Origin: Candidatus Aenigmatarchaeota archaeon
GTDB taxonomy: Archaea; Aenigmatarchaeota; Aenigmatarchaeia; Aenigmatarchaeales; JACQIB01
Reading direction: 5' to 3'
Length of the DNA: 64,000 bases
NCBI GenBank assembly: GCA_016198755.1
Contig: JACQIB010000004.1
Location: 160,001-224,000 of the forward strand
Every line of letters starts with the position of its first letter. Position 1 is the first letter of the stretch. Under the pieces are notes generated by a model, which worked only from the letters and a program-made list of their open reading frames with translations, did not search any database and was not told the origin of the DNA. Positions 35,788 through 63,339 of the stretch are shown piece after piece. A program made the translations under genes and the position numbers.

Positions 35788-35917
35788 TGGTGGACTCGGT
35801 GGGATTTTCTCCAAACCCTTTTGGGGTTTGCAAAGACCTTTTCGGAAAAGGGATTTGCTTTGAACCCACAACCTCTTGCTTGCAAAGCAAGCGATCTTCC
35901 AGTTGATCTACGAGCCC
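35788..35917 (-). tRNA. tRNA-Ala(TGC) with 54-nt T-loop intron at 59/60 (35805-35858), CCA encoded
   Basis: Acceptor GGGCTCG/CGAGTCC, anticodon arm CTTGC-TT-TGC-AA-GCAAG; removing the insert restores GTGGG-TTCAAAT-CCCAC. Confidence 0.92.
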
Positions 35918-40822: not shown

Positions 40823-41667
40823 ATTCATGCTAGAAGCTTCGAAAAAGGTTTTATAATATTAATCAACTTATACACTGATTGATTAACAAGAACATCATTA
40901 TATTCTTCCTTTACAATATCTATAGCATCTTTTTGTATATTGCCTTCTAATATTGCTATCAATCTTACATAGGGATATTTTTGTCGAATTTTCATAGCTC
41001 TATAAGCAAGTTCTACGGCTTGCAAACGTTTCCTATAATTGAAATTCATTTGCTTTACCTCAATTATTATTTTGGGTATATTTTCAGAAGGCAAGGCAAA
41101 ATCTACTACAAAATTTCTATTGGTCCTCACTAGGGCATGAAACTTATGTGAAATGCCCAATTTCTGAAAGATTTCTATATATCTTTTTTCTTGTTCTGTA
41201 GGACCTTTTATTATTGCACCTTTCAGAGATCTTTCTTTAGACGCCTTTAAACTCATTTTTCTTGCGCGTTCAGTATCTCTAAAAGTGCCGCGTTCGGAAA
41301 TTTCATAATACCTGCGTATTAAGATTTCCCTAGAAGGAATTCTTTGCATGCATTTAATTTCTTCAAACACTTTGTTTATTACTTTTTCGTCTACACTTTT
41401 TCTAAATCCTTTCTCTATATTATAGACTGTGCCTTGACTCTTCCCTATAAACTTTGCTAATTGCCACTGACTCATATTCAATATTAAACGTAGAATCAGC
41501 AATCTCTGCGGTTTTGTATATATAATTTCAGGTTTCAGTTTCCTTAAACTGTCTGTTGTTCTATATACTTCATCACAGAGATTTTTTAATTTTAGCTTGT
41601 TTATGGTAATCACCGATATTATATTATATCGGTAACTACTATTTAACCCTTTACAGAGCTTCTAACT
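40823..41667 (-). mobile_element. 16S intron 6 (845 nt, helix 43 loop, E. coli ~1363) carrying an endonuclease-like ORF
   Basis: Full hBHBh': GGCGAACG/CGTTCGCC, TCAT/ATGA, bulges aa|a and at|t, GTTAGAAGCT/AGCTTCTAGC. Confidence 0.9.
40825..41613 (-). CDS. intron-encoded HTH(XRE) + PD-(D/E)XK-like putative homing endonuclease
   Basis: MSQWQLAKFIGKSQGTVYNIEKG HTH; PTEQE...VVDFAL...IIIEVK nuclease-like core; AT-rich, wholly inside intron. Confidence 0.75.
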   Translation of the reverse strand: MITINKLKLKNLCDEVYRTTDSLRKLKPEIIYTKPQRLLILRLILNMSQWQLAKFIGKSQGTVYNIEKGFRKSVDEKVINKVFEEIKCMQRIPSREILIRRYYEISERGTFRDTERARKMSLKASKERSLKGAIIKGPTEQEKRYIEIFQKLGISHKFHALVRTNRNFVVDFALPSENIPKIIIEVKQMNFNYRKRLQAVELAYRAMKIRQKYPYVRLIAILEGNIQKDAIDIVKEEYNDVLVNQSVYKLINIIKPFSKLLA

Positions 41668-41971
41668 TTATGACGTTCGCCTACTATGAATTCCGGCTTC
41701 ATGTGGGCGAGTTGCAGCCCACAATCTGGACTAAGATTGGGTTTAGGGGGTTAGCTTTGCCTTTCGGCATTGCATCCCATTGTCCCAACCATTGTAGGAC
41801 GCGTGTAGCCCAGAGAATTCGGGCCGTACGGACCTACCGTCGCCCACTCCTTCCTCTGCTTTAGCAGCAGCGGTCCCGCCATTGTGCTCTCTCCCCGGAG
41901 GGAAAGGTGGCAAATGGCAGCGTGGGTCTCGCTCGTTAACGGACTTAACCGCACGCCTCAAGGTACGAGCT

Positions 41972-42132
41972 TTCTCGTCTTAGCAGCCCTCATACAAAAC
42001 ATTATCTTACTTTTCTCTATGTTTTACATAATTAGCATTCCACCAACGTCGTATCAGTATTAAGTTTGAATACTGGTTGCATATCGTTGTTGAAATTTTT
42101 CAATATCCCAATTAAATTGAGACTGCCAAGAT
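41972..42132 (-). other. 16S intron 5 (161 nt, after E. coli ~C1066)
   Basis: ATCG-tc|a-TCTTGGCAGTC...GGCTGCTAAGA-CGAG-aa|a; restores CCATCGTCAGCTCG. Confidence 0.85.
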
Positions 42133-42675
42133 GACGATGGCCATGCAACTCCTCTCAGCTTGTCTGGTAAACCCGTTAGGCTGACCCTCATTCTGCTGTC
42201 TTCTCTGGTAAGATGTCCGGTGTTAAATCCAATTGAACCGCATCCTCCACTCATTGTGTGTTCCCCCGCCAATTCCTTTAAGTTTCAGCCTTGCGGCCGT
42301 ACTCCCCAGGTGGCCCGCTTAACATCTACACTTCGGCACTGCATGTTCACGTAGAACGTGCAACACCAAGCGGGCATCGTTTACGGCTGGGACTACTGGG
42401 GTATCTAATCCCAATCGCTCCCCCAGCTGTCGCCCCTCACTGTCAGACTCGTTTTCGGTAGACGCCTTCGCCACAGGTGGTCCTCCACGGATTAAAGGAT
42501 TTAACCCCTACACGTGGAATACCTCTACCGTCTCCCGATCTCAAGGCTTGGAGTATCTCCAGCGCGCCTGACAGTTAGCTGCCAGATTTCACCAGAGACT
42601 TTCAAGCCCAGCTACGGGCGCTTTAGACCCAATAAACGCGATAGCCATTTGGACCGCGGGTATTACCGCGGCGGC

Positions 42676-42706
42676 GTGTGCGAACAAAGTCTACTGACTT
42701 TGAACA
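42676..42706 (-). other. 16S intron 4 (31 nt, after E. coli ~A520)
   Basis: GTGC-ca|t-...CAAAGTC/GACTTTG...-GCAC-ac|g; restores GTGCCAGCCGCCGCGGTAA. Confidence 0.9.
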
Positions 42707-42918
42707 TGGCACCCGTCTTACCCAGTCCTTATTCGCCTAGGTTTTTAGCCTAAGCAAAAGCTCGTGCAAAGCACGAGCACTCGAGGTTCCCTTCTCACAC
42801 GCTAATGCATTGGAAAGTTTTCGCTCCTGCTGCGACCCGTAGGCCCTGCGCTCATGTCTCAGAGCGCATCTGGAGGCTCACACTCTCATGTCCCCTACCC
42901 GTCACAGGCTTGTCAGTT

Positions 42919-42979
42919 TTATAAAGCAGGTAGCTTATGCTACCAAAAATTATTTTGGCAAACTAAGTTTGCCTATGCA
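42919..42979 (-). other. 16S intron 3 (61 nt, helix 11 loop, E. coli ~265)
   Basis: GTCAGT/ACTGAC outer stem, GTAA/TTAT helix, bulges ag|t and aa|a. Confidence 0.8.
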
Positions 42980-43086
42980 CTTTACACTGACAACAACCTG
43001 ATAGGCCGCAGTCCCATTCTATGGCGCCGGAGCTTTCACTTTTGGTGCATTCCAGCATCCAAAAACTATGGGGCATTAGCCTCACT

Positions 43087-43115
43087 TTTGCGTTCACTTT
43101 CAAAAGAAAGTGGAA
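43087..43115 (-). other. 16S intron 2 (29 nt, helix 8 loop, E. coli ~161)
   Basis: TGCG-aa|t-..CACTTTC/GAAAGTG..-CGCA-aa|a; restores CTTGC-GAAA-GTGAG. Confidence 0.88.
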
Positions 43116-43161
43116 TTCGCAAGATTATTCCCCACCATAGAGTAGGTTAACTACGTGTTAC

Positions 43162-43833
43162 TCAGCAGTGCGCCGAGGGCAAGAGCGGATTAAATAGAAC
43201 CTTACCAGTCTTTTTACAATAAAAATAGTTTTTAAATTCCTTAGAAAGACATCTTACTTTTTCTAACTTTAGTGGATGTTTAAATTTTATTATTCTACAA
43301 AACTTTCTAAAATTTTTAGCACCTTTTATTCGCCACCAATATACATCGTTTTTTCCATAAACTTTTGATACATGAATACCATATGTTTCTAATAATTCTT
43401 TACTCCATATGCAAAAATCCTTAGATTTAATTTGTAGTTCTATTACAGGATATTCATATATAGACATCATGGTCTTTCTCTTATACCTTTGGACTTCTTT
43501 GAATACGGAACAATCACCATCAAAAAATCCTATAAGAAAATTCATCTTTTCTTTTCTATTTATGTGCACTGGTGGAGTGATGTCATGAGACTTTTTCCCT
43601 GGTTTTATATGATAAAGTCTCTTAAATTTTTCGTATAGCTTACGATCACTTACCCTTATCTGAAATACTCTTTTTCTTAATTTGTAAGTAACCTTGTTTT
43701 TTGCAAATTTTTGAAGATTTTTTACTATATCATCTCTGAAGCGCTTGTTATTTGTGTAGACATAGACATACGGTCTATATTTTTCTAAATGACCATCTGC
43801 AGCTATTAAACCGGCCATATAAGAAAATTTCAT
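43162..43833 (-). CDS. double-motif LAGLIDADG homing endonuclease (intron-encoded)
   Basis: YMAGLIAADG and FLIGFFDGDCS motifs. Confidence 0.93.
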   Translation of the reverse strand: MKFSYMAGLIAADGHLEKYRPYVYVYTNNKRFRDDIVKNLQKFAKNKVTYKLRKRVFQIRVSDRKLYEKFKRLYHIKPGKKSHDITPPVHINRKEKMNFLIGFFDGDCSVFKEVQRYKRKTMMSIYEYPVIELQIKSKDFCIWSKELLETYGIHVSKVYGKNDVYWWRIKGAKNFRKFCRIIKFKHPLKLEKVRCLSKEFKNYFYCKKTGKVLFNPLLPSAHC

Positions 43834-43901
43834 ATATTATTCTATGACGATATACAACTTATAGATTTCTATGTTTCGTTAGTAGTGTTCTACTTAATCC
43901 T
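43181..43901 (-). mobile_element. 16S intron 1 (721 nt, helix 6) with LAGLIDADG ORF
   Basis: GGATTAAGTAGAAC/GTTCTATTTAATCC terminal stem, GGGT/GCTC helix, bulges aa|a and tt|g; boundaries +/-1 nt. Confidence 0.88.
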
Positions 43902-44020
43902 TTACCCCTCTCGGCTCGCATGGATAAATCGAACCCCGATAACGGCTATCTCCGGCAGGATCAACCGGAATTAAATTAGGGGGGATTTCACAAACCTAAT
44001 GGTTTGCGTTCCCTGTTTTC

Positions 44021-55670: not shown

Positions 55671-56131
55671 GCCTGTTTAACCTGCTCAGCTAACAAAGGC
55701 TTTTTTCCGCCGAGCAAAACAATTATTTTGTCTGCAAAATCCTTAACTTCACTCTCTCCGGCAGATGTTAGAACTTTCTCACTGTCTTTTGGTATTCCGG
55801 CAGAATTTAACAGGGAAACTGCAGTACCGCTGGCTGCAACAATTTTCCCTGCATCAAAAAAATCCTTTGCCATTTTAACGGCTGCAGGGTTATTTTCCAG
55901 TCCTATAAAACCCGGAGAACAGCCAATAAAAACAACACCATCATACTCGTTTACCCTAACCTCTTCCAGCCTCATGTTAGGTAGATAGCTTTCCCCTTTC
56001 AAAGAAACAAGAGAAGTCTTCTGCGGCCCGCAAACAAGCTGCAGAATACCTGCGGCATCTATAAGCTTGCGCAGCTCAAAGAACTCTGCATCCGGAAACC
56101 CGCGCTGGGGGGTAATTTCTATTATTAGCAT
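55667..56131 (-). CDS. DJ-1/PfpI-like protein lacking the nucleophile Cys
   Basis: GFPDAEF, YDGVVFIG, GKIVAASGTA..L..AGI. Confidence 0.7.
   Translation of the reverse strand: MLIIEITPQRGFPDAEFFELRKLIDAAGILQLVCGPQKTSLVSLKGESYLPNMRLEEVRVNEYDGVVFIGCSPGFIGLENNPAAVKMAKDFFDAGKIVAASGTAVSLLNSAGIPKDSEKVLTSAGESEVKDFADKIIVLLGGKKPLLAEQVKQA
56039..56099 (+). repeat. 61-bp exact direct repeat, copy 1
   Basis: CTGCAGAATACC...CATCCGGAAAC identical to 59766-59826. Confidence 0.92.
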
Positions 56132-61056: not shown

Positions 61057-61125
61057 CAAAAGATATCCATGGAAGTTATAACTATAATACTTTGGTTTTT
61101 ATACTTAATGCATAAAGCTTCTCTT

Positions 61126-62124
61126 ATGATTGAAATTGATGGAAATGATGCTGGAGGGCAGCTTGTCAGAACCGCTGTTTCTCTGAGCGCCATAACAGGA
61201 AAGGCTTTTAGGATTGTTAACATACGCGGGGCGCGACCCCAGCCTGGACTGAAAGCACAGCATATGGAAGGTATTGGAACTGTGGCAGAACTCTGTTCTG
61301 CAAAAGTTTCGGGGTTGGAGTTAGGCTCAAAAGAGCTGGAATTTATTCCTGGAAAGCTGGAACCAAAAAATTTGGAGGTTAAAATCTCTACAGCAGGTTC
61401 AATTGGATTAGTTTTGCAGTCTCTGTTAATTGATGCAACAAAGTTTGAAAAGCCTATTAATGTTAAGTTTTCAGGCGGTGGAACATGGGGAAAGTGGGCC
61501 CCACCCATGCTTTATCTGGAAAAGGTTTTTCTGCCCTGCTTATGTTCAGGTTTAAAAACAAAAGTTAAGAGAGAAGGTTTCTATCCTCGTGGTGGGGCAG
61601 AAGTAGAGGTTGAAATAACTCCAATTAAAGTAAAATCTATAGAGATTCTGGAGCATGGAAAGCTGCTGGAACTGAATATTTTCTCTGTTGCTGCCCAATT
61701 GGAAGGGAAAAAAGTAGCTGAGAGGCAGGCTGAGGCTGCGCGCAGTTTCCTAGAGGAGAGGATTGGGGTAAAGGTTTCTGTGAAAACAACCTATTCTGCA
61801 GCAGAAAATCCTGGCTCTGGTATTTTGATTGTTGGGAAGTGTGAAAATTCAGTGATTGGAGCTGACTCTATTGGAGAGCTAAATGTTCCAGCAGAGGAGG
61901 TTGGAAAGAGAGCTGGAAAGGATTTTTTTAATGAGTTTGCAAACGGGGCTGTAGACAGGCACTGCGCTGACATGCTTTTGCCCTATATTGCTCTGGCTGG
62001 AAAGGGAAGAATAAAAACATCAGAGATAACCCAGCATATTGTTACCAGCATAGAACTAATAGAAAAGTTTCTGCCTGTAAAGTTTTCGATAGACAGGGAA
62101 AAGAAGATTATTTCTGTGCTATGA
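61126..62124 (+). CDS. rtcA: RNA 3'-terminal phosphate cyclase
   Basis: IEIDG...GGQLVRTA, RPQPGLKAQH, TAGSIGLVLQ, GFYPRGG, VDRHCAD. Confidence 0.93.
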   Translation: MIEIDGNDAGGQLVRTAVSLSAITGKAFRIVNIRGARPQPGLKAQHMEGIGTVAELCSAKVSGLELGSKELEFIPGKLEPKNLEVKISTAGSIGLVLQSLLIDATKFEKPINVKFSGGGTWGKWAPPMLYLEKVFLPCLCSGLKTKVKREGFYPRGGAEVEVEITPIKVKSIEILEHGKLLELNIFSVAAQLEGKKVAERQAEAARSFLEERIGVKVSVKTTYSAAENPGSGILIVGKCENSVIGADSIGELNVPAEEVGKRAGKDFFNEFANGAVDRHCADMLLPYIALAGKGRIKTSEITQHIVTSIELIEKFLPVKFSIDREKKIISVL

Positions 62125-63155: not shown

Positions 63156-63339
63156 TGGTGCGGGAGGCAAGATTTTCAGCCCTTTTGGGGTTTGCAAAGA
63201 CCTTTTCGGAAAAGGGATTTGCTTTGAACTTGCGTAGGGACTAACCCACTAGGTTTCTCATGCAGGTCTCTGAGCAACGCCTGCTCCTAAGCTTCGCTTA
63301 AATCATCTAGCGCCTTTGACCTGGCTGGGCCACTCCCGC
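63156..63339 (-). tRNA. tRNA-Leu(TAG) with three introns (30/31: 63293-63306; 37/38: 63255-63285; 59/60: 63173-63222)
   Basis: GCGGGAG/CTCCCGC acceptor, long variable arm; splicing restores CTAGG-CT-TAG-GA-CCTAG and GCAAG-TTCAAAT-CTTGC. Confidence 0.9.

Follow-up and report, generated by a model that had tools for sequence, protein, structure and literature searches.

A hairpin core repeated in T-loop introns of unrelated tRNA genes of an Aenigmatarchaeota archaeon and its possible spread as DNA

Introduction

The Thermoproteales reportedly carry transposed ('translocatable') tRNA introns, as described by Fujishima et al. in 2010 (Mol Biol Evol 27:2233). According to the parts of three papers used here, very similar introns without an ORF recur in this group, in tRNA genes that are not related to each other and at more than one position (PMC4033280, PMC4090602, PMC4390854); the last of them, from 2015, states in the part used that no translocatable intron is located in class II tRNAs. 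T-loop introns at positions 59/60 and 53/54 were described in ARMAN-2 (Ca. Micrarchaeum acidiphilum), and the excerpted sections report that its splicing endonuclease (EndA) cleaves a 59/60 intron of the hBH type in vitro (PMC3239211). For the tRNA-Thr of Caldiarchaeum subterraneum, the delivery of an intron by an integrating element was proposed in the excerpt of PMC3293823 considered here. The mechanism by which archaeal tRNA introns are gained is called unknown in reviews. The idea that tRNA introns protect against integrating elements is said to come from Randau and Soll.

Here, a stretch of 64,000 nucleotides from a Candidatus Aenigmatarchaeota archaeon of the order Aenigmatarchaeales was analysed, namely positions 160,001 to 224,000 of the contig JACQIB010000004.1 (assembly GCA_016198755.1). 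This whole stretch is referred to as the window, and positions are window positions unless a locus label is given. This tiny archaeon comes from groundwater, and its genome, with 890,842 bases on 6 contigs, has an estimated completeness of 89%. An earlier note on this DNA had pointed to a T-loop intron shared by two tRNA genes of the window.

Results

The shared sequence and its two host genes

Both genes are located on the minus strand, contain an encoded CCA and are the sole copies found in the genome. The tRNA-Ala(UGC) gene (35788–35917) has one intron at 59/60, and the tRNA-Leu(UAG) gene (63156–63339), which encodes a class II tRNA, has three introns. The 59/60 T-loop intron of tRNA-Ala (35805–35858; 54 nt) consists of a 43-nt core with two hairpins (35816–35858), attributed here to family A, and an 11-nt tail. 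In the 59/60 T-loop intron of tRNA-Leu (63173–63222; 50 nt), an identical 43-nt core (63180–63222) is followed by a 7-nt tail. The cores are preceded by the common exon bases G53–A59 of the T arm (35859–35865 in tRNA-Ala), a near-universal tRNA sequence. Thus, the shared 50 bases (35816–35865 and 63180–63229) consist of 7 exon bases and the first 43 intron bases. The identity had been described in the earlier note with this composition and at this T-loop position, and it was found to be exact (BLAST E value of 1e-20 against the 0.89-Mb genome). The in silico excision of the inserts gave complete tRNAs, namely a 76-nt tRNA-Ala(UGC) and an 89-nt tRNA-Leu(UAG), both of which were accepted by ARAGORN. 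The Ala and Leu exons occur once each in the genome. When the raw window was submitted to ARAGORN, one gene was found, and the unspliced tRNA-Ala and tRNA-Leu were both missed; standard tRNA finders overlook most of these intron-bearing genes. The Rfam search at the two sites revealed nothing beyond tRNA.

The two other introns of tRNA-Leu, a canonical 37/38 intron of 31 nt (63255–63285) and a 30/31 intron of 14 nt (63293–63306), are unrelated to the core; their borders were set by eye and with the orthologue in locus L150. A CU-CAG-A stretch is part of the 37/38 intron; a scan of the genome gave no gene for tRNA-Leu(CAG). Bases 2–9 of the family-A core in tRNA-Ala (35850–35857) repeat positions 56–63 of the spliced Ala T arm. 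Owing to this repeat, another T stem can form when the sequence is folded; the repeat may be the remnant of an att duplication or may be due to chance.

Some other features of the window were recorded. Besides the Ala/Leu pair, the window contains one repeat of at least 30 nt (56039–56099), which is intergenic and possibly a self-inverted repeat. A gene encoding RNA 3'-terminal phosphate cyclase (61069–62124, plus strand) is located about 1 kb from the Leu gene; this enzyme acts on the type of end used in splicing, yet the closeness is probably due to chance. The 16S rRNA gene (41601–43975, minus strand) contains several inserts, one of which (about 700 nt) includes a LAGLIDADG ORF (43162–43833, PF14528), and an ORF at 40825–41613 begins at the end of the 16S Rfam match. 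No match of the intron families to the 16S region was found.

Verification of the assembly

The repeat was traced in four read runs of one study, which is possibly the source of the assembly, so the runs are not independent of it. In all four, the 50-mer formed its own unitig with a depth 1.2 to 2.5 times that of the flanks (133.8 versus 73–75, 109.5 versus 63–73, 19.9 versus 13–16, and 42.8 versus 17–18). The flanks run into this unitig, and no joint that bypasses the intron was found in the four runs. In addition, the tails of the two introns differ, the T stem and acceptor stem close properly across the insert in each gene, and family A is also present in relatives from other assemblies. 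A repeat-collapse artefact, which the earlier note had considered, could be argued from the possible common source of the runs and the assembly and from the fact that none of the listed contigs spans the whole locus. However, a separate unitig deeper than its flanks indicates that the Ala/Leu pair is no collapse, and the chance of such an artefact appears negligible.

Families of T-loop inserts in the genome

A T-arm scan of the genome gave 39 calls, and after the removal of two low-scoring ones, 37 genes were left, 22 of them with a 59/60 insert. A BLAST search with the inserts added two genes bearing both 53/54 and 59/60 introns, giving 59/60 inserts in 24 of the 39 tRNA genes found. Four families, A (5 inserts), B (7), C (7) and D (3), account for 22 inserts; the two others are short singletons. 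The hosts of family A are Ala(UGC), Leu(UAG), Ser(UGA), Val(UAC) and Thr(CGU); for Ser, Val and Thr, the anticodon was read by eye. Therefore, the identity of the Ala/Leu pair was confirmed and its uniqueness was not, since three further copies are located elsewhere in the genome. The Leu, Ser and Val copies are nearly identical over the whole intron.

In this genome, families A and B have a 10-nt tail in common, and family C is also present in a D-loop intron. Free copies of families B and C were found, and the five copies of family A are all located in tRNA genes. Two free family-C copies (L121, G000:C3:31444-31481, and G000:C2:192109-192134) lie a few bases behind a TATA-box-like A/T tract, and the family-C intron of tRNA-Arg(GCG) (L123, G000:C5:12206-12414) contains a nested insert of about 49 nt with two hairpins. 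Among 371 genomes of the phylum, the family-C core was found in this genome alone. The Rfam search of nine family-C loci with a relaxed threshold revealed tRNA and sub-threshold matches, and nothing else.

Predicted splicing of the inserts

The set analysed for pairing contained 128 distinct T-loop inserts; this genome contributed 22, and 106 came from 100 of 102 relative and metagenome loci, with two doubtful calls kept. T55 pairs with intron base −4 in 124 of them and C56 with base −5 in 121. Position 57 covaries with base −6 (A:T in 54, G:C in 14, A:C in 5 and G:T in 5; Fisher p of 9e-8, although kin are not independent); the other 50 inserts have a purine at −6 that is unpaired with position 57. 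Sliding the helix off register lowered the pairing from 0.87 to 0.40–0.61. Note that base −3 was fixed by the search pattern. The central helix contains 4 of 4 pairs in the Leu intron and 3 of 4 in the Ala intron. Both introns have a 3-nt lower bulge, the central helix and an irregular upper bulge, and hence belong to the hBH type. The lowest-energy fold of a 71-nt piece of the Ala copy differs from the splice structure.

Two tandem genes encoding EndA were found in the genome (L001:1462-2515; G000:C1:37748-38801). The 178-aa protein keeps the catalytic Tyr and His and has an extra loop ahead of the His, as in the chains of N. equitans and ARMAN-2; the 171-aa protein does not contain the His. 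Where the catalytic Lys is expected (K334 of M. kandleri), Ala is found here and in most homologues parsed, and Ser or Thr in a few. No Lys was found at this position in any EndA homologue parsed (Aenigmatarchaeota-like), while Tyr and His are kept. The loop ahead of the His is lysine-rich, and the best relatives of the EndA are mostly Ca. Aenigmatarchaeota records. The genome also contains a gene for the RtcB ligase. Kaneta et al. linked disrupted tRNA genes with a C-terminal 'L3' loop in the enzymes of DPANN archaea, according to the portion of their paper used here (PMC5829648), and from our reading of the alignment, the extra loop may correspond to L3. Of the 11 genomes of the order that have at least 5 T-loop pattern matches, 10 contain two EndA matches, an association that follows clades and is based on a pattern requiring encoded CCA. 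The genome G023 has a single EndA and yet contains a T-loop intron. The tandem His-less paralogue is common in the order, one family excepted.

Since the intron ends pair with T54–R57 and covary across the 128 inserts, splicing by the two-gene EndA is very likely. Judging from these sequence features, we are confident in predicting that both inserts are spliced out in the cell. Evidence against this comes from the Ala at the position of the catalytic Lys and, for the Ala intron, from the missing fourth helix pair and the lowest-energy fold.

T-loop introns of other kinds were also observed. One genome of the order (L015, G013 matches) contains many T-loop introns of 9–10 nt, which is near the minimum for the splice helix, and G007 contains more than 20 unrelated AT-rich T-loop introns.

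Family A among relatives

A comparison of the core with the genome and its relatives, which the earlier note had suggested, revealed the five copies described above and the presence of family A in 3 of the 42 genomes of the order. All 11 matches in these 42 genomes and all 12 metagenome matches lie within tRNA genes and have the sense orientation. When 18 distinct T-loop introns of family A were compared, 41–43 of the 43 core bases matched in 16, and 38 and 39 in two Ala copies, while the tails range from 7 to 37 nt; one copy in G006 seemingly has two stacked tails. The occupancy of orthologous genes varies. The tRNA-His gene carries family C in this genome and family A in L111, and the tRNA-Asp and tRNA-Lys(UUU) genes have no T-loop intron in G002 and family-A or A-like introns in G006, a genome of the same genus. 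In addition, family A was found in an anticodon-loop intron of the Trp gene in the metagenome loci L107, L112 and L113, which are probably one lineage. Thus, like the translocatable introns, family A is present in unrelated hosts (Ala, Leu, Ser, Val, Thr) and at different positions (59/60, anticodon loop).

The earlier note had proposed the recent spread of an intron without an ORF. The spread of such a T-loop intron agrees with the five tRNA hosts and with the orthologues in relatives that carry another family or none, but its recency cannot be derived from the identity of the copies alone. All 43 core bases are unchanged in L110 and L111, although the flanks are only 82% and 75% similar to this genome, respectively; the chance of this identity under neutrality is about 2e-4 for L110 and 6e-6 for L111. 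Because the core stays identical amid such flanks, the identity alone cannot date the spread, and the core is either under constraint or passed from species to species.

Free, reversed and islet-end copies of family B

The search for the family-B core gave 42 matches in 18 of the 371 genomes, and 30 loci were fetched and sorted by eye. Seven are T-loop introns, 4 are other same-sense tRNA introns, and 4 are reversed within tRNA introns; 3 copies are located at att-like repeats of the tRNA 3' end, 1 is beside a tRNA 5' end, and 11 are free. No single common upstream target motif was found for the free copies.

Three islets (313, about 590 and 870 bp) are each preceded by an intact tRNA and end in the cassette with a repeated tRNA 3' end. 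The tRNAs in front of them are those for Gly and Leu, the three genomes (L266:9600-10030, L267:9270-10000, L268:8880-9980) belong to a different family, and all three islets contain family B in reversed orientation. One includes a methyltransferase gene; no integrase or recombinase was found in them. Two of these islets have a repeat that starts at T54, with the cassette directly behind TTYGAA on the opposite strand, while the T-loop cassettes begin behind TTCRAA. A scan of 146 distinct tRNA-like ends gave 5 downstream repeats, namely 3 islets (two family-B and one Ser), 1 second tRNA gene and 1 unclear case; this count is a lower bound, as most loci are short.

The Ser islet (L126, G000:C3:245726-246800) is located behind the family-A tRNA-Ser(UGA) gene and is 1.06 kb long. 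Its 30-bp direct repeat consists of 17 intron bases, which belong to the tail, and 13 exon bases. The islet encloses one gene for a 314-aa protein with a motif that we take to be Fic-like, and has a short inverted repeat at its ends. The simplest reading is that it entered after the intron.

Exact patterns of families A, C and B gave 0, 0 and 0 matches in viral contigs. Genes for a Y1 transposase, a tyrosine integrase or a reverse transcriptase were not found in this genome (89% complete). Y1 genes are present in 6 of the 42 genomes of the order, and a motif scan revealed no cassette core adjacent to them. Reverse transcriptase genes are present in 9 of the 42 genomes, and none was found in G002 or G006, the two other family-A genomes (80–92% complete together with this genome).

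Discussion

Origin of the repeated core

The explanation that best fits these data jointly, to which we assign a probability of roughly 55%, combines a relaxed bulge-helix-bulge intron with a hairpin cassette copied as DNA by an outside enzyme and a tail kept by selection. The 59/60 insert would be a relaxed intron of this type, excised by the two-gene splicing endonuclease of the host. Its identical 43-base front would be a small non-coding hairpin cassette that is copied as DNA and lands directly behind TTCRAA through an enzyme supplied from elsewhere, where it would either give rise to a new intron or replace the first part of an existing one. Selection presumably holds the six bases at the 3' end of the intron, which pair with T54–R57, so the tail can vary while splicing is preserved. 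Candidates for the enzyme would be a single-strand transposase or a recombinase of integrating islets that targets tRNA genes, and short-tract gene conversion may contribute to the evenness of copies within one genome. DNA-level insertion is placed first because of the free, reversed and islet-end copies of family B, and on this sequence evidence the cassette does seem, on balance, to move as DNA. Since family A was never seen free or reversed, the argument is based on its sister families, and the exact 5' border at the splice site is equally compatible with a route through RNA.

In such an RNA route, an intron released by EndA would be joined by RtcB to the 5' exon of another pre-tRNA, and the chimera would be rewritten to DNA by a reverse transcriptase or by RNA-templated repair, with the 3' junction resolved within the resident intron. 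The identity starts exactly at the splice site, position 57 follows the host, family A lies wholly in tRNA genes and in sense, the Leu, Ser and Val introns are nearly identical throughout, and both RtcB and, in some genomes of the order, reverse transcriptases are available. However, the three family-A genomes yielded no reverse transcriptase, and the reversed and free family-B copies would be left unaccounted for; the part of a review used here also says that such gain is supposed to take place at the DNA level (PMC4090602). We therefore consider this route unlikely, and the reverse splicing put forward in the earlier note is not favoured. Less likely again is that gene conversion by the host, primed by the common T arm and a short likeness of the tails, copies introns among tRNA genes without a dedicated element. 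Such conversion would account for tails common to different families and for the same T stem in 3 of the 5 family-A hosts, whose common 5' exon runs exceed those of random sets (8.8 nt, p of 0.013, post hoc). Over all four families, however, the exon runs are no longer than with shuffled labels (p of 0.15 for 5' and 0.26 for 3'). In addition, family C stands behind both G57 (3 copies) and A57 (4 copies), family A stands behind G57 in relatives, and moves from one to another of the T, D and anticodon loops could not draw on any homology. Thus, the conversion through GTTCAAA suggested earlier is a weak candidate, as position 57 tracks the host.

In a further explanation, the core would be an old functional RNA module, a protein-binding site or a released circular RNA, under selection, with its identity uninformative on recency, as its 43 bases unchanged in L110 and L111 would suggest. 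Nevertheless, the core is lost or replaced in orthologous genes, the family is restricted to the three genomes of the order, Rfam added nothing at the two sites, and the folding z-scores are only −1.1 to −1.7, which makes this explanation very improbable. Somewhat better, though still improbable, is the idea, also raised in the earlier note, that the introns are kept and turned over since they interrupt the attachment site in the T loop that integrating elements use. Integrase genes were found in 14 of 21 genomes of a family poor in T-loop introns, against 2 of 6 relatives from the family of this genome and none here, but these counts are clade-bound. Two islet repeats in intron-poor genomes start exactly at T54, which shows that the T loop is indeed targeted. 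Against protection, the repeat of the Ser islet includes bases of the intron tail, and full-length integrase genes are located about 55–60 bases behind T-loop-intron tRNAs in the relatives G005, G014 and G023. These integrases may recombine downstream of the intron; in G023, an integrase-bearing and another continuation of the same T-loop-intron tRNA gene were found, while a search for the partner att in G005 and G014 gave none. At best, the T-loop intron would be a leaky barrier to integration.

Returning to a cassette copied as DNA, the cores could tentatively be regarded as non-autonomous ends of undescribed tRNA-targeting mobile islets in DPANN archaea, in which a TTYRAA-directed reaction would give an islet border or, flipped, a spliceable T-loop intron. 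We regard this as possible but doubtful. If true, tRNA introns would be footprints of the very elements that they supposedly block, and new elements would then enter intron-bearing genes.

Significance

The moving unit described here has a defined sequence and a fixed 5' border, is accompanied by parallel families, and shows gains and swaps among close relatives. Because the unit is defined and its turnover visible, an RNA swap, gene conversion and a DNA element give testable predictions, and the cassette is a concrete handle on the spread of archaeal tRNA introns. The finding also bears on the protection idea, since an islet repeat holds intron bases. Translocatable introns in Thermoproteales and T-loop introns in ARMAN-2 were already known from the parts of the literature used here; the present analysis adds the anatomy of family A, the count of covarying pairs, the copies in reversed orientation and at islet ends, and the att-like repeat that contains intron bases. 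Searches of an open-access library gave no description of these Aenigmatarchaeota families, although Fujishima et al. or supplements may list similar cases.

Comparison with known systems

Among small mobile repeats, MITEs are characterised by terminal inverted repeats and a target-site duplication. The ends of the family-A core and intron are not inverted repeats, and no host-specific flanking duplication was found, so family A was not attributed to MITEs. The REP/REPIN elements, as described in the excerpt used (PMC3733652), resemble families B and C as short hairpin repeats of a few tens of bases, present in both orientations and with copies behind genes. The family-A core likewise agrees with the short palindromic stem-loop (20–40 bp) of these bacterial elements; however, it has no GTAG or CGTC tag, its copies number only five and are all in tRNA genes instead of being numerous and extragenic, and no RAYT (Y1) gene was found in the genome (89% complete), so it was not classified as a REP/REPIN by the features given there. 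On the reverse strand, family C has GTAG at the hairpin foot.

The tRNA-Thr case of Caldiarchaeum, in the form given by the part of the source used, is similar in that an intron sequence is linked to an att-like tRNA repeat and a small islet lies beside the tRNA. It concerns a single gene, whereas here one core is found across many isotypes and the islets observed do not contain a recombinase. ARMAN-2 shares, by the sections excerpted, the intron position, the relaxed hBH junction, genes with double 53/54 and 59/60 introns (two here) and a heavily disrupted tRNA set. The intron tested there was 13 nt long and the enzyme was of the epsilon2 type, while here the introns belong to repeat families of 50–103 nt and the tandem EndA has Ala in place of the catalytic Lys.

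The translocatable introns of Thermoproteales, to the extent covered by the parts of the papers used, share very similar BHB introns without an ORF, unrelated hosts, several positions and an EndA of the two-subunit type. The present families differ in their DPANN host, the concentration at 59/60, the constant core with a variable tail, and sister cores that are also free, reversed and at islet ends. Finally, the class II hosts found here, Leu(UAG) and Ser(UGA), run counter to the statement in the 2015 paper (PMC4390854, part used), and the claim that such introns avoid class II tRNAs is thus overturned.
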